DNA of 64,000 nt, taken from positions 32,001 through 96,000 of IMG/VR virus record IMGVR_UViG_3300032286_001377; one strand, given 5' to 3'. A model generated the notes under the pieces. That model had not been told where the DNA came from. It worked only from the letters and a program-made list of their open reading frames with translations, and ran no database searches. The stretch is from a virus. Both the position numbers and the translations under genes were made by a program. Below are positions 30,867 to 63,122 of the stretch, piece after piece (positions within the stretch are counted from its first letter, which is position 1; every line of letters begins with the position of its first letter).

Positions 30867-32078
30867 TTAATCTAACCAAATTGAATACTCTGAAGTAACA
30901 CCTTGCTCAGGGTGAATGTACATTAAATGTTGAGATGGACGACTCATTGAATTAAAATACTCTTGAGCATACGTATTATAACTTTCTGGGGACCCAGAAA
31001 CTCTCAAAACAGTAGTACCAATAGACATTTTAAAACTCTGATGATAGTGACCCATGAAAACATCATCAAAATGCTCGGGGATGGCACCATCTTTCCATCC
31101 AAAGATTCTTTTATAGTAACCACTGACAGAGCTAGGATGAGGTAATTGATCCCCATGGATTAAAAGTGTTTTATAATTACCTATCGCATCCACTGCATAC
31201 CAATTTCTTTCTCCTCTTCCATCAGGAATGTTGAAAGTTATTCTAGGTTCTTTTGTGAAAATTAAATTGACAATCTTATATAAGAGCCTATCCATATTAG
31301 TTTCAGGATCATACTGTCGCCTATTTCTTCCACCTACTGAACCATGGTTGCCAATCACCCCAGTAACATGAACATGTTCGAAGTTCTCTAACGCAGTACT
31401 TAAAAAGTTGCCTAATATTTCAGGACCATTAACACCAACTTGACGATACAAGCCAGAATCAATAAGATGACTCTGACCAGGAAAAATTTCTTCACCCTCA
31501 ACAATATCGCCTAACAGCCAAACATGTAAATCATTTACAGGATGATGAGCTCTTTGAATCTCAGTGATCTCTAATAATTTTTCAGTATATTGCTCAATTC
31601 TCTGGGCAGCTACTTCAGAATTGTAATCAGGAGTAACTTTCCCCAGTTGCCAATCAGCAAAAACTGCAACAGCTGTCTCTGAAGCTTTTGAACTTTTTGG
31701 AAAAGAAGGTCTTTTAATCTTAGGCAGATCAAAATTACTAAACGCATCAAACGCTGCACGATACACTGCAAAAGAAGCTTCTGTATTTACGTTCTTATAA
31801 CGATCTGCCAATCTGCCAAGTCTTTTATTCTCTGCTCTAAGAAAATCAACAGTAGAAACTTCTTTAATATCCGCTTCAACTAGATCTTCTTGATCAATTT
31901 CATCAGCCCACTTTTCTAGAACATAGGCCCTATCTTCGTTAGACGCACCTTCTTCAATTGAGGAAAGTGAATCTAATAAATCACCAACACCATCTAAACC
32001 CTCGACTATTTTTCTAGCTTCCACCATATTTGGGGCGCGAACAATTGATTTCTGTACAATAGTGTACATCTTAGTCAT
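30867..32078 (-). CDS. Calcineurin-like metallophosphoesterase (nuclease/phosphatase) with N-terminal coiled coil
   Basis: All five motifs present: ADWQLG, LGDIVEG, GNHG, HGD, GHYH. Confidence 0.85.
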   Translation of the reverse strand: MTKMYTIVQKSIVRAPNMVEARKIVEGLDGVGDLLDSLSSIEEGASNEDRAYVLEKWADEIDQEDLVEADIKEVSTVDFLRAENKRLGRLADRYKNVNTEASFAVYRAAFDAFSNFDLPKIKRPSFPKSSKASETAVAVFADWQLGKVTPDYNSEVAAQRIEQYTEKLLEITEIQRAHHPVNDLHVWLLGDIVEGEEIFPGQSHLIDSGLYRQVGVNGPEILGNFLSTALENFEHVHVTGVIGNHGSVGGRNRRQYDPETNMDRLLYKIVNLIFTKEPRITFNIPDGRGERNWYAVDAIGNYKTLLIHGDQLPHPSSVSGYYKRIFGWKDGAIPEHFDDVFMGHYHQSFKMSIGTTVLRVSGSPESYNTYAQEYFNSMSRPSQHLMYIHPEQGVTSEYSIWLD

Positions 32079-32092
32079 AATTCACCTATCTA

Positions 32093-33262
32093 TCAGTAGT
32101 TAGATGTACCTATTATAACAGCATAAATGTTAACATTTCCAGCTGCAGCATAACGTTTTACAGTATTTAAATCAAAATCTTTAAGTGGCAGCTCTCCGCC
32201 ATCTGCGTTGAAGCCGCTTATAGTAACATTTCTAATTAGATCAGAAGAAAGCTTTATCTGTTGTTCGATAGTGGCAATAGAAACAACATCTCCAATTGAT
32301 AAAGAATTTAGATATCTTTTAACAAAAAGTTCCGCTTGTCTTCTTACTCCAGTTATCATATTGGTTGTATTTCCACTTGGAACAGTAATAGTAGCTGAAA
32401 GGTTTATCGACACCTTTTCAGCTATGCGAACATTAAATCTCACACCAACTGGCTTAACTGCATAAATAGCAGAAAGTATTGCTTCTGGCAAAGGGCGGAG
32501 AGCAACAGAAGCTTCCGGCACAACAATAATATCGCAAGAGCCTATACCATAGCTTGCTTCTCTAATCCTAACATCTCTTACGCCCTTAACTGCCAGGGCA
32601 GCAAAGCGAATAGATTCTGCAGTTCCTGCTGATTTAGATTTAAGTGAAGCGATAATTCTTCTGCGATAGTTTGAATCAGACTCAGAATTAGGGTCAGCAT
32701 AAATTTCTTTTGGATTTGAACAGAAAACTACAACAGCAGATGGCCCAATATAATTATGTTTAGTTAAACTGCCAACTGGAGCAACGTAAGAATTATCGGT
32801 AAAATTAGGCTCAACCCTTCCATAAGCCTTAAGCGTACCTGCTGTTATAACAATGGGTCCAGAAAGCTTAAAACTGTATTGCCTTATTGTGAAAGCTGAA
32901 ACATCAGTATATATTAAAGTATCTTTTGGAATAGTTATATCTGTACTATGAACTTTATCTAGAAAAAATTCAATATTATAAGATTGTCTCTCTTGAGAAA
33001 CTACAGATGTAACAGATTTTCTTGGTATGCCATAAAGATCTCCAATTAAATCTAAATTTCTACCCATTGCAGTACTAAGATTATTTTGATTAATAGAATA
33101 TCTCAGAGCCTCATATAGGTCAGAAACTTCTGAACTAAATGCTTCTGCAAAAGCTCTAGCAATAGAACCAGGATGAGTAGCAGTGATGCCTGCATTTTTT
33201 TCTAGATTATTAAGAACAGAAACTAAAACATCTGACTTACTTTTAACTCCATAGACTGGCAA
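32093..33262 (-). CDS. Baseplate J-like (P2 gpJ/Mu gp47) wedge protein
   Basis: TAMGRNLDLIG, ESDSNYRRRI, GTAESIRFAALAVKGVRDV; TTG start with AGGAG RBS; follows the gp25-like gene. Confidence 0.85.
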   Translation of the reverse strand: MPVYGVKSKSDVLVSVLNNLEKNAGITATHPGSIARAFAEAFSSEVSDLYEALRYSINQNNLSTAMGRNLDLIGDLYGIPRKSVTSVVSQERQSYNIEFFLDKVHSTDITIPKDTLIYTDVSAFTIRQYSFKLSGPIVITAGTLKAYGRVEPNFTDNSYVAPVGSLTKHNYIGPSAVVVFCSNPKEIYADPNSESDSNYRRRIIASLKSKSAGTAESIRFAALAVKGVRDVRIREASYGIGSCDIIVVPEASVALRPLPEAILSAIYAVKPVGVRFNVRIAEKVSINLSATITVPSGNTTNMITGVRRQAELFVKRYLNSLSIGDVVSIATIEQQIKLSSDLIRNVTISGFNADGGELPLKDFDLNTVKRYAAAGNVNIYAVIIGTSNY

Positions 33263-33263
33263 T

Positions 33264-33644
33264 TTAGTCTCCTAATGTTTGTGTTACAGAAAGTGTTATG
33301 GGCTGATCTATATCAGATATAACATGAACGTCGAATCTAATAGTATCCCTACTTGTAGGAATTGCATCAATTCTAATATCCCTGCCTTTAAACAATCCTT
33401 CTCTTTGAAGGCCTGTTCTAATTAATCTTTTTCCAAATTCGCCAGTCTCTGGAGTTTGTGGCATCCCATATAATAACGAAAGATCAATACCAAGCTGAGG
33501 ATAAATGTAGAAATCGCCAGGTTCAGTCATGAGCCTTAAATACACCTGCTGAATATCTGACTGAAGCGATGAATTAACCATTGCGATATCCATGTTTCCA
33601 TTTATTACAATATCACCAGTTAATGTAAAGTATAAATCACTCAT
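33264..33644 (-). CDS. Baseplate wedge/sheath initiator, gpW/gp25-like
   Basis: GDIVI...QQVYLRLMTEPGDFYIYPQLGIDL matches the gp25 pattern; likely start MSDLY at 33644, overlapping the upstream stop. Confidence 0.8.
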   Translation of the reverse strand: MSDLYFTLTGDIVINGNMDIAMVNSSLQSDIQQVYLRLMTEPGDFYIYPQLGIDLSLLYGMPQTPETGEFGKRLIRTGLQREGLFKGRDIRIDAIPTSRDTIRFDVHVISDIDQPITLSVTQTLGD

Positions 33645-34272
33645 TAGTTTCCTTTGAAGCCTGCGCATGTGCCTGATCAAAACTTAAACCTTGTCTTAAA
33701 TGCTTCACAATAAGAGCGATATGCAACTCGGAATAAGAAGATGCATAAGCTTCCAGAAGACCAATCTCTTCAAAGCTTAAATCTGATATATCATAATCGG
33801 ACACATATTTTTGTTGAGGAATAGTTTCTCTTGTAGAGAATTTGTTCTCAGCTAATATAGTAATTGGTTTCTGTTTTTCTTCCCGTTCAATCATACTTAC
33901 AGTATCAAGATAGTAAGATGCTCCGTTTTGTGCGGTATGAATATCTTTCAAATTTATTTTAACTAAAGTAGGCTCAGAAAAAGAAGAAGCTGAATAATTA
34001 AAATAATAGCTATTCCACTTCAATCCATCTTCTTTGCAACTGAATTTAATTGTATCCGCAAAAAAAGATATACTTTTGGACTTCGCACTAATAACAATAC
34101 CAATACCTGGAGTAGCAAAAATTTCAATATCACCTTGATCATTTAGTCTCATAAAAGATTCATTATCAGGATGATTAAATCCAACTTCTCTTTCCGAAAA
34201 TTTTCTTCTTTTGGAAAGTTCTTTCTCTACAGGTATTTCTCTTCTAAAAACTGCATTTTTGTTAACATCCAT
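33637..34272 (-). CDS. Baseplate spike-associated protein (beta-strand repeats), putative
   Basis: 211 aa; SFMRLNDQGDIEIFA...GIVIS...SISF resembles the spike beta-helix strand pattern; lies between the OB-fold gene and gp25. Confidence 0.5.
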   Translation of the reverse strand: MDVNKNAVFRREIPVEKELSKRRKFSEREVGFNHPDNESFMRLNDQGDIEIFATPGIGIVISAKSKSISFFADTIKFSCKEDGLKWNSYYFNYSASSFSEPTLVKINLKDIHTAQNGASYYLDTVSMIEREEKQKPITILAENKFSTRETIPQQKYVSDYDISDLSFEEIGLLEAYASSYSELHIALIVKHLRQGLSFDQAHAQASKETNE

Positions 34273-34640
34273 CAGTGCACCATAAATCTAGGAATTCCAG
34301 TACGCATAATTGAATTATGGAAACTGTTTGTTCTTGTATCAGAATCGTCAAAATAATTTAAAACATATGGATTAGATTCATTATTGTCTCGAAATCCAAC
34401 TAAACACCGTGTACCTATGGTTGGAGAAACGACTTGTACACCCCTTATAGATGGGCACGGTACTGAACGAATTACATTACCGGGAGAGTTAGTGAATTGT
34501 TCATCTAATATTATGGTGGCTAAATTAGTAGAACTGTCATATCCCATTATTGTGCCAGGTCTAGTTTTTGAAGACTTATATAGAGAGTTATCTATCTGCT
34601 CTTGTATTTTTTTATCAAACTTTGGATAATTAACTGGCAT
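34272..34640 (-). CDS. Baseplate spike N-terminal OB-fold protein (gpV/gp5/gp138-like)
   Basis: PGTIMGYD...ATI...VPCP...PTIGTRCLVGFRDNNESNPYV matches the gpV OB-fold pattern; AGGAG RBS. Confidence 0.7.
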   Translation of the reverse strand: MPVNYPKFDKKIQEQIDNSLYKSSKTRPGTIMGYDSSTNLATIILDEQFTNSPGNVIRSVPCPSIRGVQVVSPTIGTRCLVGFRDNNESNPYVLNYFDDSDTRTNSFHNSIMRTGIPRFMVH

Positions 34641-34696: not shown

Positions 34697-37102
34697 TTAA
34701 ACCCTGAATTCTTCACCTTCAAGCCATCTAGCCGCATATGGAGCTGCCTTAGAGTTTTTGCCTGAGGTCTGAAACATTTTTAAAACCCAATCTTTAAGTT
34801 GCTGCTCTGTTTTACCTAAAGATACATATAGATCTCTTGCTATTGAAAACTTAATATTACTAAGAAATCCATAAGTTGGACCTCCACCATAATCGCCCCA
34901 TGGCTTAAATACATATCCAGTCTCAGCAGTTAGGCCTAATTTAGTTCCGCTAAAAATGGTACCGCCAGTAGCTACAGTATAGGTTATATAAGCTTGGTTA
35001 ATGGGTATCCACATTCTTGAATCAAAAAGAGACCATCGATCACCCTTAGAAAGTGCCTTAGCTTTAGGTAATGCTTTGGCATTAAAATTACTTAAGTCTA
35101 CATCATCTTTATCCCAATCCTTATAGCCTATTTGCCAACCAGCCATTTGAGTCTGACTAGGAAGAGGAATGAAAAATGTATGCCCACCATTGGCCCCAGG
35201 AAGGAGATTGCATTGAAACATTCCACCAGACCAGTCACCAGTGACATCTGACACATTGCAGGCACGAGGTTGCAAGCCGCCCTCTCTAGTAGCAATAGAG
35301 CAGAATATGGCAGCCGCCTCATCAGACATGACAGTAAGCCTCAGAAGAGCAAAAACTTCTTCTCTAGACAACTTGCCATTAGGTTCAGTTGAATAACCTT
35401 TACTAAACTTAGCATCACTTAAATCTGTTGGGGTTACAAATTCTCCAGTCACGCCGGAAGAAATGGTAGTAGAAGTGGGAGAAGTACGATTTGTATTAGG
35501 TGGATAGAAAGGGCTATTACTTCTAGTTTCCCTATGATATGTAGCAAAATCTAAACCTGCGGGATCAGAAGTGGTATCGGATGGAGTAGGTGTCACCGTA
35601 TCTACGGGAACATCTGGTTCACCAGAATCCACAATACTGCCTGCAGGAGGTGTCACTGCAGTAATGTTGCTTCTCTGCCTAGATGCACTATCCTCATTTT
35701 TATCTGGAGCACGATTTACGGTAGTGCGAGTACCGGCTCCTCCCATTTGTCCACCTGGACCAGTATATATCCCTGATCTGACTCCACTGAAACTCATATG
35801 AATGTGAGTTCTATGAACCTCATCTGCAGAAAAGTTTGCATACTTGATAGCAGGATACATAGTTTTCATTTTACAGGTGTCTGGTTCAAAACCTTTAGTT
35901 TGAATTCCAAACTCTTGAGCTAAGTCTATCGATATAGCAAAATGATCAGGGATTAAATGAATAGGAGCATCCGAAAAGGCTTCCATTAACGTAGTTAGGG
36001 CAATTAGATACCTATTTCTATTTCCGCCCTCTTTCCCTAAAATTACTCTATTAGGAGAATTTGAACTATTAAGTGGACCAATAACATCTATATCAAATGC
36101 CCTACCGAGAGCATGATCAGTTATTGTGCCACCTTCTGTTAGTGATGAAAGATTTGGACCTTGTGTATTCTGATTCTCTCCACGTTCCCAACCAAATCCG
36201 CCACGAATCTCTATTTTACTATTAAGATACAACATAAGCTCAATCATCGCCGGACAAATATATGCTTTTTGACTAGGTTGATCAATCAACTCTTTTGACA
36301 CTTTGTTGCTTCCGGTAATCCCAGGATAATTACTCCCAGTTGTATCTAAATCATTAAATTTATTATTAATGTCAAAATTATAACCATATGTAAGAACACT
36401 AGAACTATAAGTTGTGTTTAAATTTTTTAAAGTCATCGACCTATCTAAAAGCCAACCTTTTTCCTCTGGAGATAATGTTGATTCTACTGTAATCACCCTT
36501 GAGCCAGCGCTAGGATTAGAAGAATCTCCAGTATAAGTACCAGGGTTAGTGCCAGCACTATTGCCTGCGCCATTATCAATATTGCCACTAGGCTGACCAG
36601 GAACTCCACCAGGTGGTTCATCAGGATAAGATAACTTAATGCTATAATCAGCTGAAATGCTTTCAGCAGCATTTAAAACAAAATCGGAAGCGGCTTTTTT
36701 ACCAGCAACACTGTCAACATAATGCCGAGCTGTAGCAGACCCTCCTTTAAGTTCTGTTTTACCAATTCCATCTTCTGGATTATCAATCTTGTATGTATCG
36801 TTTGTAGTGTTTGCTGCAGCAGATACTGTTCCTAAAACGTTATTTAAAGATGGTATCAAAGTAGAGTTATAAAAATTTTGACTATAAACCGGACTTCTAT
36901 AAAGAACATCTCCAGACATCGCACGAGATAAACTGGTTGAAGAAAGAGTTTTCTCTCTGCTTATCTTGTTCCCATATTCCTTAGAATAATAAGAAGTATT
37001 ACGTATTACTACTTCACCTGCAGGATAATAGCTTCCGTGAATGGAATTTGCAATAGTCGCAAAATCAGAAACTGTCTCATTATTAAAATTAAAATTAGAC
37101 AT
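34697..37102 (-). CDS. Tail-associated peptidoglycan hydrolase: M15-like Zn peptidase plus lytic transglycosylase/lysozyme-like domain
   Basis: HALGRAFD (H-x6-D) and HIH Zn ligands; IATREGG...GMFQCN (SLT-like catalytic Glu and GxxQ); P/T-rich linker between them. Confidence 0.75.
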   Translation of the reverse strand: MSNFNFNNETVSDFATIANSIHGSYYPAGEVVIRNTSYYSKEYGNKISREKTLSSTSLSRAMSGDVLYRSPVYSQNFYNSTLIPSLNNVLGTVSAAANTTNDTYKIDNPEDGIGKTELKGGSATARHYVDSVAGKKAASDFVLNAAESISADYSIKLSYPDEPPGGVPGQPSGNIDNGAGNSAGTNPGTYTGDSSNPSAGSRVITVESTLSPEEKGWLLDRSMTLKNLNTTYSSSVLTYGYNFDINNKFNDLDTTGSNYPGITGSNKVSKELIDQPSQKAYICPAMIELMLYLNSKIEIRGGFGWERGENQNTQGPNLSSLTEGGTITDHALGRAFDIDVIGPLNSSNSPNRVILGKEGGNRNRYLIALTTLMEAFSDAPIHLIPDHFAISIDLAQEFGIQTKGFEPDTCKMKTMYPAIKYANFSADEVHRTHIHMSFSGVRSGIYTGPGGQMGGAGTRTTVNRAPDKNEDSASRQRSNITAVTPPAGSIVDSGEPDVPVDTVTPTPSDTTSDPAGLDFATYHRETRSNSPFYPPNTNRTSPTSTTISSGVTGEFVTPTDLSDAKFSKGYSTEPNGKLSREEVFALLRLTVMSDEAAAIFCSIATREGGLQPRACNVSDVTGDWSGGMFQCNLLPGANGGHTFFIPLPSQTQMAGWQIGYKDWDKDDVDLSNFNAKALPKAKALSKGDRWSLFDSRMWIPINQAYITYTVATGGTIFSGTKLGLTAETGYVFKPWGDYGGGPTYGFLSNIKFSIARDLYVSLGKTEQQLKDWVLKMFQTSGKNSKAAPYAARWLEGEEFRV

Positions 37103-37114
37103 AAAATTTACCTT

Positions 37115-40100
37115 TTAATTAGATACTGATGTCGGCATTGGTAGAGAATCATTGGCATCAATAACGGAAGATGACTCTTTTTGTAAATCTTTCACAAAGA
37201 CTTTTGCTAAGTTGTTGACAACTAACTCCCAATTTAAAGTAACGGGATGTCCATCAGGGAAATATTCATCCCAACTTACCCTAGGCCATTCGGATGCTTT
37301 GTCATATATTTCTTCTAGTACTTTAAAATAAACAAATCTAGAATAAAGTTTCCTTTGATCATCTGTAAGTAAATATAGACTATCCGCATCATTTTGAATA
37401 TTAAAATATTCGTCATTAATTATTGACTCTACGCTTTCAAAAATTGAATCAAACTTTGTGAAGAAAGCTGATTTGTCATAGATGTCATTTTTTAGCTTGT
37501 CTTTAATTGATTCAAGAGCTGTCAAATTAGATCTAAACAAATTAGCAACGTACGACAAAATATTGTCAATTTTTTCTTGAGGCAAATAATAAAATATGGT
37601 TGCCATAACACGTGATCCAGTTACATCGCCCTCATTTTCCCTGTCTCCACTACCAAAAATATCTAGCTGATAATTTTGAATTGTATTAAGTTGACTTCCG
37701 GCTTCGAAATCTTGTTCAAGTACAGCTTTTCCGCCAATTGCATTGGAGCCTTCAGTTCTAGTCTGATTTATTCTTAAAACAATTAATTTATTTTCTAAAG
37801 CTTTCTTTACGAAAACTTTTGCTTTACCACCAGGAGTAGAAATATCTAAGAAGCTCAAATTTGTTGGATTTGTACTACTAGGATAATCAACTGTACCTTG
37901 TATTGTATTTGTTTCTGCTGCGTTAATACCATCAAAGCGAACTCTAAAATTTACCCCAGATATAATATCCGTGACATCGATTGTGTCACCGTCTAAAACT
38001 GAGTTAACTTGACAGATAACTCTGAATTGCCATTCAAAACCAGCTTTTTCTGGACCAAGACCAGATAACTTAAGAACCTGCGCATGAACTAGTGCTGACT
38101 CATAACTAATGTGTCTGTAGATATCATTAATAGCTACCTCATTCCAACCAAGGCTCTTAAATAGATCGTCACTTCTAATAAATGAATTCCCTTCTGGAGT
38201 TCTAGCTTTTACTCTTGTTCCAAGAATTCCAGGGAGAAGCGCCTTACTATGATGCTGGCCTACCACCATTCCTTGATTATAGGACAATCCAGCGTCCATA
38301 GGCTGACCGTTCTTATTGAGATATTGTACATAACACCCATGTTGGTCAAGCACATTATCTCTCACCCATTTCCAACCCTTCCAAACAAGTTGACCAATTC
38401 CAGGAAGCACTTGAGCCATAATGGCAAAAGTTGGAACTCCACCACCCTCTTCTTGACCTGCAGCATTGAGAAGTGAGCTATTGACGCCTGGAGCAATCAT
38501 TGCTGTTTGATTTGCCATTATGTCTTTAACAAGGGCTGACGAACCATGGGTAAATTGGAATCCGCCAACAATTTGAGTAGTTAATATTTCACCTAATCTA
38601 TCAACAGAAATATTTCCGCCAAAAGATAAACCTGAATTAGCATTTCTAATATTGTCAATATAAATTCTGGCGTCATTTCTAACATTCTGAACGTGCATCC
38701 AAGACTGCATCCAGGATGTCATAAACCATCTTGCAGGATCATTAACAGTAACTAAAGCATTAGGTGTAATAGAGGTAATGAATCCAAGTTCAGGAGTGAA
38801 ATGATGAATGACTTGTTCTACTTCAAAAATCCCATACATTCTTTCATACACATCAGAAAGATACACTAAGTCGTGAGGCCTAATGTCACCATTCCCTATA
38901 ACTAATAGCTCTCCACCATAAATATCTTTAATTGATTCCTTAAGGTGCGATAATGCAACTCTTCTAGCACTCAGTTCATCTGGAGCACCTTGAATAGCTT
39001 TTGCTACACCTCTAAAGGTTTCCATCGGATGCATAAGTGGATGTAAAAACCCAGTAAAACCAGATCCAACTATATTATCAAAATAAAGACCAGTTTCTAC
39101 TGTTTTTTCAACCTGCCTTTCAGCAGGCGCGCCTTTATCTAAAGCTACTGTCACTGGATATTTTCCATCAGATACGGCTGTTATTTGTGTCGCCACATTA
39201 TTTAAATTTTCTTGAATCTGATTAGATAAAATATGAGAAAAAGAACTGATGTAATGAATTCTTTGAAATGGCTCTCTAATTTCAACTACTGGCTCACCGT
39301 ATTCGCGAGTGAAAGGATTATCTACAGCTCTTAGAAGTGTTCCTGGTCGACCAAGAGAATAATAAATAGAATCATTTAATGCTTTGTTTAAAATATTTGC
39401 TTGCTTTTTAAAGTTTCCAACTTCAGACAATGCATAACCCAACTGTTGCATCGTTGTTTTGAACATTGATATTAAACCAGAAAGTGCATCACCGACAGCA
39501 GAAACGATTGGACCAATGGTTCTTGATGCAAATTCGGAAACATCTGAAACTACTTCAGAAAAATAAGTATTAGAACTATTACCCTCCCCTCTAGTGCTGA
39601 CTAATAGTTGCAAAAACTTTGCTTTCTTACTTGGCTTTGCATAGTCTGAATTGGGATCAATATACGCTCTAAATACTTTATCTACAGGCTTAAAAGACCA
39701 TCCGTCATCAGCGCTAAACCAACCGGCTTTCTTATCTGGCTTCAAAACCAACCATGCTCGCGCATATGGGTCTTCCCACAGTCTCTGCCTAAATAATCCA
39801 ACCATTAAAAGGAATAACTGTTTTGGTGTTTTAATATTCTTTTTTAATATATCTGAAACATCAATAACCGCATTATCGTCTTTATTTGAAGCTTCTATAC
39901 TAAAATGTAAAACACTTAAAACACTTTCTCCAGCAAAAAAACTTTCATAAATTTTAGCTAAATTTTTAGAAAAAATATTATTAAAATAAGATAAGAGACC
40001 ACCTTCATCCAAGGGTGCGTCTATATAATTTTTTCTCATAAATTCAATGGCTTCTGAATAATCTTTACTAGGATTAGAAGAACTAGAGCCACCGCCACCA

Positions 40101-43100
40101 CCATAGTCTGAGCCAAATAATATCGCAAATTCATCTTGGGCGCTATTATTTCCTGCCCCAAAGTACTTAAATGGATCATTAACATCTTGACCAGATATCA
40201 TGTTACTAAATTCTGGTGGAAATTCTTCTTCTAAATCTGGATCTAATCCATAAACATCAAAAAATATTCTTTTAACACTTTCATAGTTATGATATTCAGC
40301 CCTGAAATAGTCCCATATATCTTGCGCTTCTCTATTTGTTCTACCATTACCGGCAATAACGCTAACGCTAGTGTCAAAATTTTCGTCAAAATAACTTCTT
40401 GCCTGAATACTAACAATATCTGAAGGATCATAAACGGCAGAGAAGGACGTTCTTACATCCTCTGCTTCTCTCCTCTTTTTAAGCTCTTCTGATGTCAGAG
40501 ATGCAGTATCTTTATCTATTGCTAGTTGAAAATAACTTTTACCATCTTTAACATTTAAAGCATTTCCGCCAAACGCAAGAGCATCTATCGCAGATTGAAA
40601 TTCTGAATTATAGGGAGCATACCAATCAAAAACACTATTTGATTTACCTATTGCATTAACTACATCTATTGCTTCGCTGCCTATTTCTCTAGCAATATAA
40701 TCTTGTCCCTCATTGATTTTAAAATTTCCAAACCCAACTATATACATACTTTCACTTTCCGCTACAGTATCCAACTGATCTTCAGTAGCGGCATTTTGTA
40801 ATTTAAACTTATTAATAGGAAGAACTGTAGTGCTTATGACTCCGACTGGAATATCATCTGGAACAAATGAGAACATACATTCTTGAGGTATAGGTGCAGT
40901 CCTATATCCTGAATCTAGCTCTGCAAAAAATTTAATTCTATTAAAACCATTGACATTAAATGTCGCCTCATCTGCTTGTAACATTGGGAAATTCAATGCA
41001 TCAAGTGTAGAATCACTTTTCTCTAAAAGTCTTTTTGCTTCAGCAGAGGTATAAGTTATAACACTTAAATAGAACGCTGCATCGGGGGAGACTAAAGCCG
41101 ATAATTCATTGCCATCAATGTAGTTTGCATCAGAATTAGGAATAACGGCTTGAATATCTGAAGTGAGATTTTCTTTACCCCACATGAAATATGCTGGCTT
41201 GCAAACAACAGCTCTACCATTGTTAGGGTTATAGACAAGAACTTTACGTTTTTTATAATCTTCTGCAGTACCGTATAGATTAGTGAATCCATATTCTGAT
41301 TTAAATTTACTTAGTGTGGCATCGTCTGCTTCGCCAGAAGGATTGTATGGCCATTTCATAGCAATGTAGAATTGTTCATCTTCAGGAGTTTCTGGAGCGC
41401 CCCACTCTCGATATGTTAGCTCTCCATAATTGTCTTTTTGATATTCAAAACTAAATGAATCTGGATCATCATTAATCTGTTGAATAGATATATTACCACT
41501 TAAACCACCTTCAGACGTAAGACCTATCTGTGGTAGTGGCATAATAATTTTTTGATCCTCAATTTGAATAATGCCCTCTATCTGATCATAGAGCGGAGAA
41601 AAATCCAATGGTGAATCAAAGTTCACAGTACCCTCTATATCCCCTCCGACAGAGGGCATCAGTGAGAACTTAGTTTTTGCATAGAAGTCTAACTCTAAAT
41701 TAATAACATCATCTAAACCATGATAAGTATTAGCGTTAACCCCCTCTTGCAACACTACCCACCCCTGCCTCATTTTAACTGTGCTGGAGTTCTCTAATTT
41801 ATATTTTTCAGTTACCGTAAAAAATGGAAAACCATACCTTGGTGGCAAATTGCCTATCTGCTTGTGTAAAGTCTTTTGACTTTCCATAGTAGATTCTGTA
41901 AAGAAGGCCTCACTATTTGAAGCTTTCATGTCCCTAGTTATAATTGGAAGGTGAGGGCCAATGCCAACCATACCTTTGCTAACTGGAAGTCTTGCAGATA
42001 TTTTTGCTCCAGATTCTAAATCAAAATATTGATAAGCCTGTGGAGAATAAAAGTTAATTAATCTACCAGTAAAAAATTTAGTAGGAGAATAAATACCAGT
42101 AGATTCTGTTATCGCTTTTGAAACAGTTTGAAATGATTCATTAGGTTCAAATGACTGAAAGAACTTCGCGTAATCTGCCAAAGGATTACTATCCTTATTT
42201 ATTGTTTCTAAAATAGTATTTAGAACTTCATCTGGCCCTAGAGGTCTTGGCCCTGAAGAGGTTCCATCTTCTCTAGCTTTTTTCTCTCCAGAAAAACCAG
42301 TAGTCACTGGAACTACACCTGAAGTGTAAAGCCAATGTGGTTTACCATAGAATACGGTAGACCTATCCTCAAATGGGCGTACCGCAACAATATAATTAGG
42401 AAGTAATCTTGCACAAATTTGGAACATATCCCAAACAGTTCTCATATATGTTTGTGCCCTAAATGATACCTCGTCAAATCCTGGAAGATCATCATCAGCA
42501 TTAGGTGCAAGTATGCCCATTGTTTTAAAAATACTAGTTCCACCACGACCGCTCAACACTCCAAGTAGGCCAAGACCAGCAAGTGCGCCAGCAGCTGGGC
42601 CAGCTAAAGCTGCAGTTATGCCAGTCATACCAATACCTATCGCACCCTGAACAAGGCCCGACCTGCCCTGAGCTTGAATTAGCTTATTGGATGCTGTTAA
42701 GTTTTCAATTGTTTCTTTGGCTGAAGAATCATTTTGCTGATACTTTTCCATCAACTTATTATAGGTTATATCGGTTAACCTACCGAGATATCCTTCAGTT
42801 CTATCATTATATGATTCTTCGGGAACTAAAGATGATGCCGTAGACCAGCCATCATCAATATCCCCTCCCATGAACTGTGCAATTCCGAGACCGTTTCCAG
42901 CATAGATGTTTCTCTTAAATATCTCAAGATCTGTTTGAGCGCTGAAGTTAGCCCACAATTGTCCAATAAGAGGAACAATGCCACCTCTTAAATTTGAAGA
43001 AAATCCCTCTGGTACAGACTGGCCACCACCAATATAGGTGAATGCTGCGCCAACTTTTTCTCTAATCCCGGCATTTTTGGCTGCTTCATCAGGATTTAAT

Positions 43101-46100
43101 GGCTCATAAAGAACATTTCCAAAGTGTTTAATGCCAAACTTGTTTTCAGAAAAAATAGTTCCCCTAGTTGCATGAGCGAAAGCTTCTCTAGTTCTAGACG
43201 AACCCATAGACAGCAGTCTAACCATTAGATCTCTTGGCTCAGACATATACATTCCAGTGTCTACGCCACCATCTATTTTTCCACTATCGCCTTTTTGCTT
43301 AGTTGAGTTAATCACGGCACCAAGTTCAATCGCATCAGATTGAGCTGTAACTGTAACTATTTCTCCCTGCTCAACATTTGTAATAACACCATTAAATAAT
43401 GTCTGCAGGGAGTTAGGATTAGCTCCGTATCCACCCCTTAAGTGAACTCGTACTCCAGGCTTTAGTCTAATGTTAGCTATATCAACAATGTACTCATTTC
43501 TTAATCCAGATAAAACATTTCTGGACATATTAATAGCTCGCTCTACGATACCTTGAAGCCCCTCAGATAAACTTAGTGAGTCAGTATTCATAGAATCGCC
43601 ATCTGTAGAAAATATCGATGATGATTCTTTTTTTGTTAATTTAGAATAAAGATTAGAAAGTCTAAATATTAAAGTGTCACCCAAAAGGTCTTCAGAAGAT
43701 ACTACAGAAAAATCTATAATAGATTGTAATCCATAGAAATTATCAAACATTTTAACGCCAGCAAAATATCCACCCTCATCAATAAGCCACAACATATAAG
43801 TAGGGAAAGCTCTAATCATTCTTCCAGATATATCCCTATATCTAGTATCTACTAACATTGTCTCCCAATGAGTATATGCATTCTTGTTATGCGGTTTCTG
43901 ATATCCTGACAAAGGAGTCACTCCACCAACTCCGGTAGTAGACTGTGTTGTGCCTTTATCTGGGGTTTGGGTATCTTCAATAAGATTAGCTTTAAGCTTA
44001 TAACTAGATGTATTTGACCCACTGGTTACATTATCTCCAGCCAATGTTAAATAGAATCTTCCAGTAGTCTTATCAATATATCCAAAATGAGTACCCAATG
44101 CTGTATGCATAATGGCGGGCATTCTGTTCGGTGATTCATTATTGGGATCAGAAGAAGGAATGATAAATATCTGCTTATGGAAATCTACCTCATCAGGATG
44201 AAAACTCACCTCATCCTCAACAGCAACCACTTGTTCGTTGCTATCATATATTTGCTGATTATACTTACCTTCTAATGCGGCCTCTATTGAAGATAGCATC
44301 GCATAGTCATTAGGAGACACGTTTCCTACTTGATATGACGCAGGATTGACTTCCAGCATAAAAAAGGGATCATCCTCACCATTAGCTGGGTCTAAAGATA
44401 TAAAATCAGTTAAAAGTTTTAGTTCAGTATCTTTATTGGCTTTACTTTCTTCTCTATTTATAATTTTATAAAAAATTCTAACAAAATCTTTTTTAGATAT
44501 ATTTTCAACTTTAAGATAATCAACCATCTGATCCAATAAATCAGCATTACTTCGAAGTGTGGCGGAATCGTTCGGATCTATATTATAAAGTCTTATAAAA
44601 TCTAAAATTTTATTTGAGATTTGGCTTTCTTTTGCAGCCCTAGCAGGGCCGTCCATTCCATCCATTCCAGTCAAACTTGGATCTTCAAAATAATAATCTT
44701 GAATTTTTGGAGTCTGATCAGTAATGTTATTGATAACATCATTGTCAAACATTTCAAAACTTCTAAAGTAGAAATCTGGATCTAGACATCCTACAGTTTC
44801 ACCTACGTCATTTTTAATAAAAAGTGGAAAATCCGGATAAGCATTAAACGATCCCCAGAGCTGCTTTATTCTTAAGAATGGATTCTTCTTAGTTCCAAAT
44901 TCTTCAACCAATTGCGCCTGTTGTCTGCTACTTAATTCTTCTCTCTTTTGTTGGAAGATATCAAAATCTATCAAAGTAAGCTCAACATCATATATATGAG
45001 GAAAATTAGGCTTAGTGCTTACATTATAAGTGAGCGGCATTACATACTTAATACCAGCTAAAGCTGTTATAATATTTTTAATCCCTAGAAATCCAATAAC
45101 ACCGGAGGCGTGTTCTAATCTAGCTAAGCCAGAGATGTGATCAAAAAGACTTCTAAATTTGATTAACTCTTTTTCGCCAACAACAGTCATTGATATATTT
45201 ATAAAGCTATCTTTACCGCCAATATGCTGATAGGTTGGCTCATCTTGCATCTGGACTTGTAGCTTAACAAGATTATTTGCCAAAGAAACAGTAACACCAT
45301 TAATAATTACTGCCTCTGGATCAAGATCCATTCTCACCATTGGAACTTCCCACTCATTAAATTGGAAAGCCCCTGTTCGTGCTCTTGCAGCTTCCATTAG
45401 CGATTGAATTGGTCCACTCTGGAAGAATCTCTGATATATAGCTACATTAAATGCGCGTGAAACTTCACCTTTGACCGTATCTCTATCTGGATATTTGCCA
45501 TTTCTATAATATTGATCATTATATTGCTTATCTACTAGATAATTTAGATACTCCTGAGGATTATTGGAAATAGCTTGGAAACCTCTTTTAATTGAATTTA
45601 AAGAAGTACTATCAATAAACTTTCCTTGAAAGCGATATAATTTTGTTTGCGGATACTGAGTTGTATCCGAATTTTTATTCTTTAACCACTCTTTTTCTTC
45701 ATCAGTTAAAGTATTCTCTCCAATAAAATTAGCAATCAAGAAATCGTAAGACTTATCTTCCATTGATTGAGAGTTAGATCCGGCGGTAATCATGTTTATT
45801 TCATCTAATATAATCTTATTAATAGATTTTGAATAAGAATTATTCAATGAAATATCAATAGTTTCCGCCAATGAAATACCATAAGAAGCTGTTTGATTAA
45901 TATCAATACCGATAGAATTCAGCAACCCCTCCCATGCAGACTGTCCAAGATCGGTAAACATCTTTTCTTGCTCAGTTCTAAATGAAGAGGTACTAGGAAG
46001 AAATAGTTTAGTCTGAGATTCGGCGGGTGCAAATAAAGTTAGGTGATTGCCATCTTTCCATTGATCAATAATATTTGTGGTAAGTGTTCCAGAAATTACA

Positions 46101-48139
46101 TCATCTGAAGCATTAGTTGTTGGAGCAGGTGGCGGCGGAGGAATATAGGCAGTATCTCCAGGACCAAGCGCTCCCACAGGGCGATACTCAAAACCATTAT
46201 AAACAACCTGATTAGAACTTAAATTGGCATCTTCGATAGTAGTTTGACCAGTTTGATCAATCTCCTTTACATCAGAAGTTTTTAATAAAAATTCTTCATT
46301 AACATATTGATTAAGCTGACCAGCTGCCTTACCCATATATTGTCTATATTTACCCCAATGTATAGCCTGATTAAAATCAGATATCATCGGTAGAAATGGT
46401 TTGTGATTATAGTTAAGCAATTCTAGATCTACTGAAAGTGCAAAAGGGAAATTTGGTATAGTTGAAATAGTCATATTGGCTAAACCGACTGCTGTAATAC
46501 CATGCACCGAGTTAAGATAATGGCTCTTTACCGGAAGAATTGGCGAATATTTAAAGGCTGCAATGAGACCTCTTAAAGATGATAAAAATTTATCAACTTT
46601 TTCTTCTGAATCGCCATTCATTTTAAAATCAATTTTGAATTCTTCATTTAATTTCAACGTAGCTGCATTATCTATTGATATTCCCCAAATCTCTTCGTAG
46701 TTAGGGAAAAATAATCTCATTCTAATTGTAGTTTCACGATATCCAGAATTAAACTTTGGACTATTCTTTTGACGAATAGCTCCAGGCATCATCGATCCAG
46801 CTTTAAAAGATGAGTTTACATCTATGGATACTGGAGGAACATAGAAATTAGCGGCTCCTAATCTTAGATGAAATATATCCGGATTTTCTGGAGAAATATT
46901 TGGTCTAAAAGGAGACTTTCTAAGAACTTCTTCTATTCTTTTTGATGTCTGCATACCTCTAAAAGCCAAGGTAAAAGAAGCTTTTCCATCGGCACCAACG
47001 CCGAATGCCCTTTCTAAAGAATCAAGAAAAGCTTCCTCATTATTAACTATATCCTCCTGTCCACCACCTTTTCCATAATTTGAATAATCTCCAACTAAAG
47101 CTAGCGCATCAAAAATAAAAGTAACTAAACTTGGAAAATAATAATTTAGATTGGCAAAGAAGATAGAATCTCTTTTTAAAAAAGTTATAATTTCATTAAG
47201 CAGTAAAAGCCATGGTGTGTCAGCAGTTTCTGAAATTGAATCAGCTGCAGATTTTTTTATAGTAGCAAGATTTGCTGTTCGCCTTTTTCCATAACTAGCA
47301 ATATCTGCTGCATACCCGGCGAGCGTTAATATTCCTATTTCTTCCATTTTCTGAAAAAGAGAATTTGTAGAAGCATTGCTTAATCCACCCGCTTCGGCAG
47401 GATTGATTACTGCTGCATTAACTTTTTGAAATACTCTGAAAAAAGAATTAGTCTGAGCTGCTGTGGGATCTCCATTAGGGAATGCTGTTGCATAAATATC
47501 ATAAAAGTAACTTCTATCTACTGAATCATATTTAGAACCAAATGATTTTGCATAGAAGGCGAGAACATTTGCTTCACCGACAATACTAGGAGTAAGATCA
47601 ACCGAACTAGTTACTGGATTCTCAGATTGAGCAACTACTTCTTGAGTAATAAGTTCATCTATATTGAATTCAACGAATTTACTACCGAGATAGTAGTCTC
47701 TCCAAATTTTCAACCGCAAAGATGCTCTAACGCCATACACTCCAATTGATGCACTATCGGTGAAGATATAGCGATTGTTATAAAAGTCAGACCTTACTTC
47801 AGCTAAGGTAGATGGAGTAATGTTTCTATTATAAGAAGTCTTTACTTTTGAAATATAAGCAGAAATTATAGCTGGAGATATAATTGGATCACTAACAAAT
47901 ACTGATAAGCAGGCGTTAATAGCATCTACTGCGAACGCATCATTTTCATCGAGCTGAATAACCTCACTCCCGGTAAACCCATAAAGATCGGGGATATCAG
48001 AGGTACCATTAATGAATGATAAAAGATCAGATTCCTTATATGGAACATCCAGCATATAGAGCGCGAATACTTTATTATACAGAATATCCGCGCTGACAAA
48101 GTTAACTAGGAAACCTTTTGTAGTGTTATTTATCGACAT
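37115..48139 (-). CDS. Giant baseplate hub-like protein with C-terminal thermonuclease (SNase) domain
   Basis: 3674 aa; hub motifs LKPGVRVHLRGGYG...LFNGVITNV and GELLVIGNGDIRPHDLVYL...GIFEVEQVIHHF...GFITSI; SNase motifs VLDGDT, VRFDGINAAE, LNWELVVNNLAKV. Confidence 0.7.
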   Translation of the reverse strand: MSINNTTKGFLVNFVSADILYNKVFALYMLDVPYKESDLLSFINGTSDIPDLYGFTGSEVIQLDENDAFAVDAINACLSVFVSDPIISPAIISAYISKVKTSYNRNITPSTLAEVRSDFYNNRYIFTDSASIGVYGVRASLRLKIWRDYYLGSKFVEFNIDELITQEVVAQSENPVTSSVDLTPSIVGEANVLAFYAKSFGSKYDSVDRSYFYDIYATAFPNGDPTAAQTNSFFRVFQKVNAAVINPAEAGGLSNASTNSLFQKMEEIGILTLAGYAADIASYGKRRTANLATIKKSAADSISETADTPWLLLLNEIITFLKRDSIFFANLNYYFPSLVTFIFDALALVGDYSNYGKGGGQEDIVNNEEAFLDSLERAFGVGADGKASFTLAFRGMQTSKRIEEVLRKSPFRPNISPENPDIFHLRLGAANFYVPPVSIDVNSSFKAGSMMPGAIRQKNSPKFNSGYRETTIRMRLFFPNYEEIWGISIDNAATLKLNEEFKIDFKMNGDSEEKVDKFLSSLRGLIAAFKYSPILPVKSHYLNSVHGITAVGLANMTISTIPNFPFALSVDLELLNYNHKPFLPMISDFNQAIHWGKYRQYMGKAAGQLNQYVNEEFLLKTSDVKEIDQTGQTTIEDANLSSNQVVYNGFEYRPVGALGPGDTAYIPPPPPAPTTNASDDVISGTLTTNIIDQWKDGNHLTLFAPAESQTKLFLPSTSSFRTEQEKMFTDLGQSAWEGLLNSIGIDINQTASYGISLAETIDISLNNSYSKSINKIILDEINMITAGSNSQSMEDKSYDFLIANFIGENTLTDEEKEWLKNKNSDTTQYPQTKLYRFQGKFIDSTSLNSIKRGFQAISNNPQEYLNYLVDKQYNDQYYRNGKYPDRDTVKGEVSRAFNVAIYQRFFQSGPIQSLMEAARARTGAFQFNEWEVPMVRMDLDPEAVIINGVTVSLANNLVKLQVQMQDEPTYQHIGGKDSFINISMTVVGEKELIKFRSLFDHISGLARLEHASGVIGFLGIKNIITALAGIKYVMPLTYNVSTKPNFPHIYDVELTLIDFDIFQQKREELSSRQQAQLVEEFGTKKNPFLRIKQLWGSFNAYPDFPLFIKNDVGETVGCLDPDFYFRSFEMFDNDVINNITDQTPKIQDYYFEDPSLTGMDGMDGPARAAKESQISNKILDFIRLYNIDPNDSATLRSNADLLDQMVDYLKVENISKKDFVRIFYKIINREESKANKDTELKLLTDFISLDPANGEDDPFFMLEVNPASYQVGNVSPNDYAMLSSIEAALEGKYNQQIYDSNEQVVAVEDEVSFHPDEVDFHKQIFIIPSSDPNNESPNRMPAIMHTALGTHFGYIDKTTGRFYLTLAGDNVTSGSNTSSYKLKANLIEDTQTPDKGTTQSTTGVGGVTPLSGYQKPHNKNAYTHWETMLVDTRYRDISGRMIRAFPTYMLWLIDEGGYFAGVKMFDNFYGLQSIIDFSVVSSEDLLGDTLIFRLSNLYSKLTKKESSSIFSTDGDSMNTDSLSLSEGLQGIVERAINMSRNVLSGLRNEYIVDIANIRLKPGVRVHLRGGYGANPNSLQTLFNGVITNVEQGEIVTVTAQSDAIELGAVINSTKQKGDSGKIDGGVDTGMYMSEPRDLMVRLLSMGSSRTREAFAHATRGTIFSENKFGIKHFGNVLYEPLNPDEAAKNAGIREKVGAAFTYIGGGQSVPEGFSSNLRGGIVPLIGQLWANFSAQTDLEIFKRNIYAGNGLGIAQFMGGDIDDGWSTASSLVPEESYNDRTEGYLGRLTDITYNKLMEKYQQNDSSAKETIENLTASNKLIQAQGRSGLVQGAIGIGMTGITAALAGPAAGALAGLGLLGVLSGRGGTSIFKTMGILAPNADDDLPGFDEVSFRAQTYMRTVWDMFQICARLLPNYIVAVRPFEDRSTVFYGKPHWLYTSGVVPVTTGFSGEKKAREDGTSSGPRPLGPDEVLNTILETINKDSNPLADYAKFFQSFEPNESFQTVSKAITESTGIYSPTKFFTGRLINFYSPQAYQYFDLESGAKISARLPVSKGMVGIGPHLPIITRDMKASNSEAFFTESTMESQKTLHKQIGNLPPRYGFPFFTVTEKYKLENSSTVKMRQGWVVLQEGVNANTYHGLDDVINLELDFYAKTKFSLMPSVGGDIEGTVNFDSPLDFSPLYDQIEGIIQIEDQKIIMPLPQIGLTSEGGLSGNISIQQINDDPDSFSFEYQKDNYGELTYREWGAPETPEDEQFYIAMKWPYNPSGEADDATLSKFKSEYGFTNLYGTAEDYKKRKVLVYNPNNGRAVVCKPAYFMWGKENLTSDIQAVIPNSDANYIDGNELSALVSPDAAFYLSVITYTSAEAKRLLEKSDSTLDALNFPMLQADEATFNVNGFNRIKFFAELDSGYRTAPIPQECMFSFVPDDIPVGVISTTVLPINKFKLQNAATEDQLDTVAESESMYIVGFGNFKINEGQDYIAREIGSEAIDVVNAIGKSNSVFDWYAPYNSEFQSAIDALAFGGNALNVKDGKSYFQLAIDKDTASLTSEELKKRREAEDVRTSFSAVYDPSDIVSIQARSYFDENFDTSVSVIAGNGRTNREAQDIWDYFRAEYHNYESVKRIFFDVYGLDPDLEEEFPPEFSNMISGQDVNDPFKYFGAGNNSAQDEFAILFGSDYGGGGGSSSSNPSKDYSEAIEFMRKNYIDAPLDEGGLLSYFNNIFSKNLAKIYESFFAGESVLSVLHFSIEASNKDDNAVIDVSDILKKNIKTPKQLFLLMVGLFRQRLWEDPYARAWLVLKPDKKAGWFSADDGWSFKPVDKVFRAYIDPNSDYAKPSKKAKFLQLLVSTRGEGNSSNTYFSEVVSDVSEFASRTIGPIVSAVGDALSGLISMFKTTMQQLGYALSEVGNFKKQANILNKALNDSIYYSLGRPGTLLRAVDNPFTREYGEPVVEIREPFQRIHYISSFSHILSNQIQENLNNVATQITAVSDGKYPVTVALDKGAPAERQVEKTVETGLYFDNIVGSGFTGFLHPLMHPMETFRGVAKAIQGAPDELSARRVALSHLKESIKDIYGGELLVIGNGDIRPHDLVYLSDVYERMYGIFEVEQVIHHFTPELGFITSITPNALVTVNDPARWFMTSWMQSWMHVQNVRNDARIYIDNIRNANSGLSFGGNISVDRLGEILTTQIVGGFQFTHGSSALVKDIMANQTAMIAPGVNSSLLNAAGQEEGGGVPTFAIMAQVLPGIGQLVWKGWKWVRDNVLDQHGCYVQYLNKNGQPMDAGLSYNQGMVVGQHHSKALLPGILGTRVKARTPEGNSFIRSDDLFKSLGWNEVAINDIYRHISYESALVHAQVLKLSGLGPEKAGFEWQFRVICQVNSVLDGDTIDVTDIISGVNFRVRFDGINAAETNTIQGTVDYPSSTNPTNLSFLDISTPGGKAKVFVKKALENKLIVLRINQTRTEGSNAIGGKAVLEQDFEAGSQLNTIQNYQLDIFGSGDRENEGDVTGSRVMATIFYYLPQEKIDNILSYVANLFRSNLTALESIKDKLKNDIYDKSAFFTKFDSIFESVESIINDEYFNIQNDADSLYLLTDDQRKLYSRFVYFKVLEEIYDKASEWPRVSWDEYFPDGHPVTLNWELVVNNLAKVFVKDLQKESSSVIDANDSLPMPTSVSN

Positions 48140-62375: not shown

Positions 62376-63122
62376 TTACGGTTTTACAATCTCATCCACA
62401 GTATTGAACTGATAAAGCTTAGCAAGATTTGTCATAACCTTATCTCCAAATACATTCTGCATGTTTTTAGATATTTGTATATTTCTATCTTTTAACGCAG
62501 GATCCAAAGTAGAAGAATCAGCGTCTTTGCCTGGATCCATTTTCACCATCGGCTGTATTCCTCTTGCCATATACGTATATGTTTGTTCTGTTATTAAGTC
62601 ATCAATAGATATTGTTTGACCTTCATCGACAATTGTTACTCCAAAAATTTTCATCTTTGAACCTTGACCATATTCATTGAAAAAGCTAACAACGATATCA
62701 AAAGGAGGCAACATGTCGGCAAGCGGTGCAAAGAAGCCATTTTTCTTTGCTAGGTAATCTTGATATTGAGATATCCTATAGAATACATATTCATTAAAAA
62801 CAGTAAAAATTAAACTGCCAGCAATAGTTCTTCCACCCTTAATAAAACCACGAGGATTCACATGGCCTAAAGTTCGAACAGGAGAATTCTCTCTGTGAAT
62901 AGAATAAGACAAAGTTTGAAGTTCGCCCAATACCAGTGTCTCTCCAGTACCAGTCATCTTTCCATCTTGTCCAAAATTTGGAATAATAATTGTAGCTACC
63001 GCATCAACACCAGAAAATGAAATATTCTTTAAAGCGTAAGCTGGATTATAGTTACCCTTTTCCTCAACTTGTTCAGGGGGAGGAATTGTTTGAGTAGGTT
63101 TACCAATGAAAATCTTTGCCAT
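62376..63122 (-). CDS. Tail tube-like paralog
   Basis: FSGVD, RENSPVRTLG, GGRTIAGSLIFTVF, PPFDI..F.NEYGQ, SIDDLITEQTYTYMAR. Confidence 0.75.
   Translation of the reverse strand: MAKIFIGKPTQTIPPPEQVEEKGNYNPAYALKNISFSGVDAVATIIIPNFGQDGKMTGTGETLVLGELQTLSYSIHRENSPVRTLGHVNPRGFIKGGRTIAGSLIFTVFNEYVFYRISQYQDYLAKKNGFFAPLADMLPPFDIVVSFFNEYGQGSKMKIFGVTIVDEGQTISIDDLITEQTYTYMARGIQPMVKMDPGKDADSSTLDPALKDRNIQISKNMQNVFGDKVMTNLAKLYQFNTVDEIVKP

Follow-up and report, generated by a model that had tools for sequence, protein, structure and literature searches.

The closest described counterpart of the protein treated here is gp147 of the Bacillus thuringiensis phage 0305phi8-36, which was assigned by comparison of hidden Markov models (HMM-HMM comparison) as a 'hyperplastic' homologue of T4 gp27 and P2 gpD, and whose transglycosylase, NlpC/P60 and M23 domains were regarded as exchangeable decorations in place of the T4 tail lysozyme (PMC2147016). 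The gp147 homologue of the prophage-like BtI1 carries an N-terminal staphylococcal nuclease (SNase) domain, whose purpose was called 'not obvious' and which was possibly recruited from a stand-alone phage gene (PMC2147016). That is to say, an SNase on a gp147-type hub family was already published in 2007 (Hardies, Thomas & Serwer, Virol J 4:97, PMC2147016), and this was the only paper found in the literature on tail- or baseplate-associated thermonucleases. The locus described here comes from an uncultured freshwater phage of ~200 kb and lies in a window of 64,000 nucleotides (positions 32,001 to 96,000 of IMG/VR record IMGVR_UViG_3300032286_001377), the whole stretch of DNA that was analysed and to which the positions below refer. 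The window belongs to a 115.5 kb viral contig with 36% GC and a CheckV completeness of 55%, and nearly all of its open reading frames (ORFs) are on the minus strand. One of them, at 37115-48139, encodes a protein of 3,674 amino acids (aa) that ends in an SNase-type domain:

37115..48139, minus strand: giant tail protein, gp147-type 'hyperplastic' baseplate hub homologue, 3,674 aa (stop codon 37115-37117; from the ORF list and the translation)

This protein belongs to the same family as gp147, BtI1 and BwK1, occupies the same slot before a gpV-like gene, and likewise combines a conserved assembly core with exchangeable enzyme domains. However, gp147 has 1,903 aa with an N-terminal transglycosylase, C-terminal NlpC/P60 and M23 domains and no nuclease, whereas the protein here has an expanded core, 3,674 aa in all, with a nuclease. 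The SNase of BtI1 is N-terminal, while the one here is C-terminal, where gp147 has its peptidases. The hosts also differ: the gp147 family is found with Bacillus, and the present phages are uncultured lake phages.

In the structural model, the last ~300 residues fold as a domain of the staphylococcal nuclease (thermonuclease, OB-fold) type, and the first-pass annotation, which had noticed a C-terminal SNase domain at 37190-38035 (aa 3369-3650) from the letters of the window, is confirmed. The five motifs it quoted, VNSVLDGDTIDV, VRFDGINAAET, GGKAKVFVKKAL, DIFG...RVMATIF and TLNWELVVNNLAKVF, are all found in the translation. The model was built with AlphaFold2 on a domain alignment (A3) of 55 sequences, composed of the window copy and the C-terminal domains of 54 related loci from viral and metagenome contigs; its mean predicted local distance difference test (pLDDT) is 77.8 and its predicted template modelling score (pTM) 0.75, with the beta strands and most helices at 85-95. 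When the model was compared with the PDB by Foldseek, the top 50 matches were all staphylococcal nuclease (E ~1e-3, probability 1.00), so that the OB-fold SNase match was obtained by structure prediction; Tudor-SN stood at rank 12 among the structural matches, and the alignment with SNase reached model residue 316-322. In BFVD, viral TNase-like nucleases ranked behind the best match, a homologue from an uncultured Caudovirales phage that bears the name 'Baseplate hub protein' (E 5e-27). In the model, the five-stranded OB-type beta-barrel with its packed helices superposes on S. aureus nuclease, which places the domain in the SNase superfamily.

Sequence tools reach this domain with difficulty. 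The sole PHROG sequence match to it is phrog_452 'endonuclease', on its first ~70 residues (E 7e-6). Among the 55 domain homologues, PF00565 (SNase) matched one (E 0.023); Pfam had no match on four distant hubs with a compact form of the domain, and tblastn of the nuclease domain against 50,697 phage records found none. Because the domain is Pfam-negative yet positive by fold, motifs and hhalign, it is filed as a divergent member of the SNase superfamily, not as a Pfam-defined one. Its parts are as follows:

38033..38140, minus strand: conserved helix and GLGPEK linker into the nuclease, aa 3334-3369 (highly conserved columns in the domain and full-length alignments; predicted helix, then a low-confidence loop)
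37586..38032, minus strand: N-terminal part of the SNase domain, aa 3370-3518, beta-barrel strands and helix 1, with D3383, D3385, T3386, R3401, N3406, E3409 and R3510
37310..37585, minus strand: clade-specific helical insertion, ~aa 3519-3610, within the strand 5-helix 2 loop of the SNase fold (helices at pLDDT 81-95)
37175..37309, minus strand: C-terminal part of the SNase domain, aa 3611-3655, SEWPxVSWDEYxxDG motif and then helix TLNWELVVNNLAKVF (= SNase helix 2)

Compared with S. aureus nuclease A (PDB 1SND, 3T13), the order of motifs is common and the equivalents of D19, D21, T22, R35, E43 and R87 are kept. Unlike that secreted, stand-alone enzyme, the domain here has Asn for Asp40 and stands at the end of a structural protein of 3,674 aa, and its model is of low confidence past the helix-2 equivalent, where helix 3 would fall. 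Three loops are expanded relative to S. aureus nuclease: ~25 aa after E43 (an extra hairpin), ~40 aa before R87, and 109-163 aa where strand 5 leads to helix 2. The last of these, measured from ATIFYY to DG..TLNWE, is 109-163 aa long in all 55 homologues versus ~4 aa in S. aureus nuclease, which bears out the ~110-aa insertion ahead of the last helix that had been read from the window copy. The 110-aa helical insertion and the hub-specific WPxVSWDEY motif also set the domain apart from the hubs of 0305phi8-36 and BtI1. The ratio of non-synonymous to synonymous substitution rates (dN/dS) of the insertion is 0.07-0.43, somewhat above that of the domain (40 of 54 pairs listed). In the alignments of 31-55 homologues, W3618, P3619, W3623, G3630, N3636 and E3638 do not vary.

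The established residues of SNase are the Ca2+ ligands Asp21, Asp40 and the Thr41 backbone, and the catalytic Arg35, Glu43 and Arg87. In full-length numbering their equivalents and neighbours here are D3383 (D19), D3385 (D21), T3386 (T22), R3401 (R35), N3406 (D40), E3409 (E43) and R3510 (R87); the earlier assignment, by which Asp40 has become Asn while the remaining catalytic residues are kept, was correct. Across the 55 homologues the active-site patterns are DDTR-N-ER (38), DDTR-D-ER (7), DDTR-Q-ER (6) and GDYK-E-RN (4). The set D19/D21/T22/R35/E43/R87 is therefore intact in 51 of 55, with position 40 being N in 38, D in 7 and Q in 6 of them; R3401, E3409 and R3510 are each kept in 51, and the Asp21 equivalent D3385 in all 55. 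Among 31 full-length homologues the active-site residues are invariant. The side chain at position 40 is an oxygen donor in all 55, and is E only in the four-member degenerate subclade. Pairwise dN/dS of the domain is 0.03-0.21 (40 of 54 pairs listed), that is, purifying selection. Taken from these residues, the domain is probably catalytically competent.

The four remaining homologues lead to a different explanation, namely that the domain is a catalytically silent, structural or nucleic-acid-binding OB-fold, whose role at the tail tip would be to plug it, to help in assembly or to clamp the end of the phage genome that leads. These four form a subclade in which D19, T22, R35, E43 and R87 have all been replaced (pattern GDYKERN) at a dN/dS of ~0.10; it looks like a group in which catalysis was lost and the fold retained, and since it is still under purifying selection, the fold has some value without catalysis. 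Its loci are:

L002:2001-3131, degenerate subclade
L034:1501-2643, degenerate subclade
L036:1501-2670, degenerate subclade
L038:1501-2631, degenerate subclade

A silent fold would also agree with the large insertions, with the failure of Pfam to detect the domain, and with the fact that the most invariant residues are non-catalytic (W3618, P3619, W3623, N3636, W3637 and E3638, in the WDEY/NWE motif); inactive SNase-like domains do exist, as in Tudor-SN. Nevertheless, 51 of the 55 close homologues keep the full catalytic set, as do distant hubs with GIDTPE, and without catalysis or at least binding of metal or phosphate this would be hard to account for; a silent fold is considered doubtful.

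Asn at position 40 is also found outside the hub. When the contig was searched in six frames with PF00565, the sole match was a stand-alone SNase of 120 aa (32.8 bits, cut-off 21), which lies outside the window:

G000:C1:28588-28950 (contig coordinates, also L086:1498-1860), minus strand: stand-alone SNase, 120 aa, ~3.0-3.4 kb before window base 1

Its motif RVRLNGINAAE corresponds to RVRFDGINAAE of the hub, both with Asn at position 40. The hub domain and the stand-alone SNase share 48% identity over 40 aa by BLASTP (E 6e-7), and hhalign of A3 against the stand-alone SNase gave a probability of 94% (E 1.2e-7). Together with the Foldseek matches, this puts the resemblance of the domain to SNase beyond coincidence. 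The related records L087-L089 carry stand-alone SNases of ~52 bits, again with Asn40, and two of the three records are complete genomes of 205.9 and 210.3 kb with terminal repeats. No signal peptide was seen on direct reading of the stand-alone SNases of the contig and of L087-L089. Since these Pfam-positive SNases carry Asn40, bona fide SNases of this phage lineage tolerate Asn at position 40 as a normal variant, and the lineage, by sequence, keeps both a free and a hub-borne copy. The stand-alone proteins (120-146 aa, PF00565-positive at 33-52 bits) resemble the hub domain in Asn40 and in the near-identical RVRxxG-I/V-N-xx-E motif. They differ in being compact, unfused, and free of insertions and of the WDEY motif, and the N-terminal ~70 residues alone align significantly. 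The presence of the two copies fits the idea of the 2007 paper that a stand-alone gene is reused as a virion decoration.

The fusion is widespread. Full-length homologues of 3,300-4,000 aa number more than 120, with 45-69% identity along the entire protein, and a profile search of 1.84 billion representatives returned 117 proteins at E ≤ 0.001. The nuclease domain ends the chain in every large protein. Public databases already name such homologues 'Baseplate hub protein' or 'endonuclease YncB (thermonuclease family)'. In a more distant set of 2,300-3,250 aa (P0177-P0242), the nuclease is also C-terminal; its gap from strand 5 to helix 2 is only ~35-40 aa, the ~75-aa helical insertion is absent, and many of its members carry the canonical motif G-I/V-D-T/S-P-E (GIDTPE). 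These proteins share WPxIxWDxY...DGxPxTxNWE, and because WPxIxWDxY...NWE occurs in them too, this motif marks hubs specifically, and the ~75 helical residues were inserted later, in the clade of 3,300-4,000 aa. Judged by their C-terminal domain, the more distant proteins are putative hubs with a compact nuclease. Free-standing forms were sought as well: the short proteins of 168-536 aa lie mostly on contigs of 1-7 kb and were taken as gene fragments, and P0140, on a long contig, begins inside the DGDT motif and was set aside as a mis-called start.

The carrier was identified through gp147. BLASTP against gp147 of 0305phi8-36 gave five collinear blocks with E from 3e-23 to 4e-7, covering ~1,150 residues of gp147:

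46253..46885, minus strand: gp147 block 1, aa 419-629, gp147 258-458 (BLASTP E 9e-14)
44930..45388, minus strand: gp147 block 2, aa 918-1070, gp147 485-630 (BLASTP E 4e-11)
43112..43864, minus strand: gp147 block 3, aa 1426-1676, gp147 834-1065 (BLASTP E 3e-23; strongest phrog_20474 match, E 2e-119)
42332..42478, minus strand: gp147 block 4, aa 1888-1936, gp147 1120-1169 (BLASTP E 4e-7)
38738..39283, minus strand: gp147 block 5, aa 2953-3134, gp147 1191-1415 (BLASTP E 1e-16; phrog_8809 E 2.8e-17; last core block before the C-terminal module)

With the middle of the protein (block 3), tblastn found five Bacillus jumbo phages (including 0305phi8-36, WH1, KLEB27-3 and Edson) and the Moorella phage MTATph1; the match in 0305phi8-36 is ORF147, annotated 'baseplate hub protein'. 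The gene order at the locus is sheath, ORFs of 2,213, 1,661 and 146 aa, the hub gene, an ORF of 801 aa, and then gpV-like, gp25-like and Baseplate_J genes:

34697-37102, minus strand: ORF between the hub and the gpV-like gene, 801 aa (no Pfam or PHROG match)
34272..34640, minus strand: P2 gpV-like spike protein, 122 aa (BLASTP against 0305phi8-36 gp148, 'P2 gpV-like', E 2e-6)
33264..33680, minus strand: gp25/W-like baseplate wedge protein, 138 aa (phrog_120, E 2.9e-5)
32093..33262, minus strand: Baseplate_J / gp6-like (gpJ-like) wedge protein, 389 aa (PF04865 at 50.2 bits, above the cut-off; phrog_6 E 6.5e-41)

The order of the gpV-, gp25- and Baseplate_J-like genes downstream matches ORF147-151 of 0305phi8-36 except for the extra 801-aa ORF, which has no counterpart at that position in 0305phi8-36, and the giant gene thus stands in the position of a hub. 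The 801-aa ORF was considered as a split-off piece of the hub and rejected, as it has no similarity to gp147.

Direct tests of the hub fold gave less. The hub Pfam models PF05954, PF09097, PF21683 and PF22255 had no match on the contig, hhalign of the full-length profile against P2 gpD had none either (probability 0.1%), and the full-length profile found no hub among PDB sequences; the AlphaFold2 model upstream of the nuclease (aa 2900-3340) fell below pLDDT 50 and was not used. The ESM Atlas neighbours of the block 3 region are all GpP/Gp44/GPD hub families at 0.87-0.89, which is under the 0.9 lead threshold and counts as a lead only. The carrier is accepted as a hub because of homology, synteny and literature, not because of a fold test. 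The proposal of an SNase domain on the C-terminus of a baseplate hub holds for the SNase fold at the extreme C-terminus and for a carrier collinear with gp147, and is in this sense partly supported.

These blank results would allow the carrier to be a tape-measure-like or internal ejection protein, which would put the nuclease inside the tail tube or the head and not at the tip. Its great length and a transmembrane-like Gly zipper are typical of tape measures, and the 801-aa ORF between the carrier and the gpV-like gene is unexplained. Against this stand the collinear homology over ~1,150 residues of gp147, the ESM Atlas leads, which are all hub families, and a UniProt homologue named 'Baseplate hub protein'; moreover, 0305phi8-36 has a separate tape measure, gp146, before its hub, and here ORFs of 2,213 and 1,661 aa precede the gene. 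A carrier of this kind is thus highly improbable. The zipper in question is:

42548..42658, minus strand: Gly/Ala-rich hydrophobic 'glycine zipper', aa 1828-1864, candidate membrane-inserting segment (Kyte-Doolittle 1.8 in a 19-residue window, the maximum of the protein)

A weaker hydrophobic stretch, VPTFAIMAQVLPGIGQLVW, lies at 38380-38500 on the minus strand (~aa 3214-3252), ~120 aa ahead of the nuclease, and after it comes a very conserved block, WKGWKW...DQHGCYVQYLNKNGQPMDAG, where the AlphaFold2 pLDDT is below 50.

Given a nuclease fold on a hub, the reading favoured here, at about even chances, is that the tail hub carries an active, metal-dependent nuclease as its 'enzyme head', placed C-terminal to the conserved core. 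We infer its virion location, its catalysis, its substrate and its site of action. The hub would form part of the tail tip, presumably as a gp27-like trimer; adsorption and sheath contraction would then expose or release the C-terminal module, and the released module would cut nucleic acid at or inside the host envelope. Cleavage would proceed through a metal site (D3385, N3406) together with general-base and phosphate-clamp residues (E3409, R3401, R3510). The Ca2+ demand of SNase, which is roughly millimolar, speaks for action outside the cytoplasm, and the nuclease stands where gp147 has its wall hydrolases, which supports action at the envelope or outside the cell. Among the scenarios with an active nuclease, extracellular or envelope action is therefore slightly ahead of delivery into the cytoplasm.

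Contractile machines offer a precedent for an enzyme in this place: in 'evolved' VgrG of the type VI secretion system (T6SS) and in the T4 gp5 tail lysozyme, an enzyme directed at the target cell is attached to the C-terminus of the hub or spike. The likeness is a functional analogy only, with no sequence relation to VgrG or gp5. The locus here is a phage structural module and not part of a T6SS, and its spike is a separate, gpV-like gene, whereas VgrG fuses gp27-like, gp5 OB-fold and beta-helix spike parts in one core. The cargo is different as well, being lysozyme, an actin cross-linking domain (ACD) or lipase in those proteins and an SNase-type nuclease here. From this precedent comes the explanation that the nuclease is an injected effector, an analogue of 'evolved VgrG': the glycine zipper would enter the membranes, and the nuclease would reach the cytoplasm before the DNA and attack the DNA or RNA of the host, either to shut it off early or to scavenge nucleotides. 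The strongly hydrophobic Gly/Ala zipper at aa 1828-1864, the place of the nuclease at the extreme C-terminus in all homologues, and the stand-alone Asn40 paralogues, which lack signal peptides and are presumably intracellular, all agree with it, and contractile systems such as the T6SS and the metamorphosis-associated contractile structures (MACs) are known to deliver nuclease effectors. On the other hand, enzymes of the SNase type have almost no activity at the Ca2+ level of the cytoplasm, a folded domain of ~35 kDa would have to be translocated, a non-specific nuclease would endanger the incoming phage genome too, no immunity or inhibitor gene was identified, and gp147 has enzymes that act on the envelope at the corresponding place. 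An injected effector is for these reasons regarded as unlikely. Clearing of extracellular DNA, action as an injected effector and inert binding, the three roles raised by the first-pass annotation, cannot be told apart by sequence.

Several observations weigh against the favoured reading of an active nuclease on the tail hub. In the window copy, Asn (N3406) stands in for the Ca2+ ligand Asp40, and the degenerate subclade described above points to a use for the fold without catalysis. PF00565 had no match at E<1 on the 3,674-aa protein or on its C-terminus, and neither phmmer with the domain nor hmmsearch with the domain profile found an SNase among PDB sequences. The insertion and the loop expansions, as modelled, could occlude or regulate the active site, and the 110-aa insertion may act as a regulatory lid. 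The virion location is what we infer from homology to gp147, on which it depends. GenBank gives mass-spectrometric virion notes to gp145, gp146 and gp151-155 of 0305phi8-36, and gp147 carries none. As the stand-alone paralogues have no signal peptide, Asn40-type SNases may work in the cytoplasm, which favours an injected effector. To our knowledge there is no cultured member of the hub-nuclease clade, and we know of no DNA barrier on planktonic freshwater hosts.

Three further observations were made on neighbouring genes. Directly after Baseplate_J lies a 403-aa exonuclease-like gene (30867-32078, minus strand; phrog_284, E 8e-44), an odd place for a gene of DNA metabolism. Directly after the sheath are two adjacent paralogues of 248 and 224 aa (62376-63122 and 63196-63870, minus strand), both matching phrog_9206 'major head protein'; their gene position suggests that they are tail-tube paralogues and that the PHROG is mislabelled. 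A structural protein of 1,835 aa (18668-24175, minus strand) has an endolysin-like segment at aa ~843-996 (phrog_1493, phrog_2649, phrog_1224), and the wall-degrading activity of the virion may, from sequence, sit on this protein rather than on the hub.

The fusion of a hub with an SNase is thus already known, and the variant here is C-terminal, bears an insertion and is widespread in lake phages. What is added is the quantified conservation of the active site with its purifying selection, the degenerate subclade, the stand-alone Asn40 bridge to the Pfam SNase, the collinear map onto gp147, and evidence for a wider set of hubs of 2,300-3,250 aa with a compact nuclease and canonical motif. The practical gain is modest and consists of the annotation of a very large uncharacterised protein family and of a divergent SNase scaffold that is tethered by nature. 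As a small, self-contained unit, the domain could be expressed and assayed without a cultured phage.

As far as we know, virion enzymes at phage tail tips are almost always degraders of cell wall or capsule. It is decidedly improbable that the nuclease is a true injected effector, in which the zipper opens a path through the envelope and an Asn40 SNase adapted to cytoplasmic metal enters first and degrades host nucleic acids; if so, no virus before these lake jumbo phages would have been shown to deliver a toxin-like nuclease on its tail hub, in the manner of the evolved VgrGs. More generally, the nuclease is conserved across about a hundred protein clusters at 50% identity, from metagenomes of lakes and other aquatic habitats, which implies that these phages have to cut nucleic acid at entry. 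The target may be the host genome, DNA or RNA of the envelope, or the extracellular DNA of aggregates or sheaths, a question that dates from the description of BtI1 in 2007.

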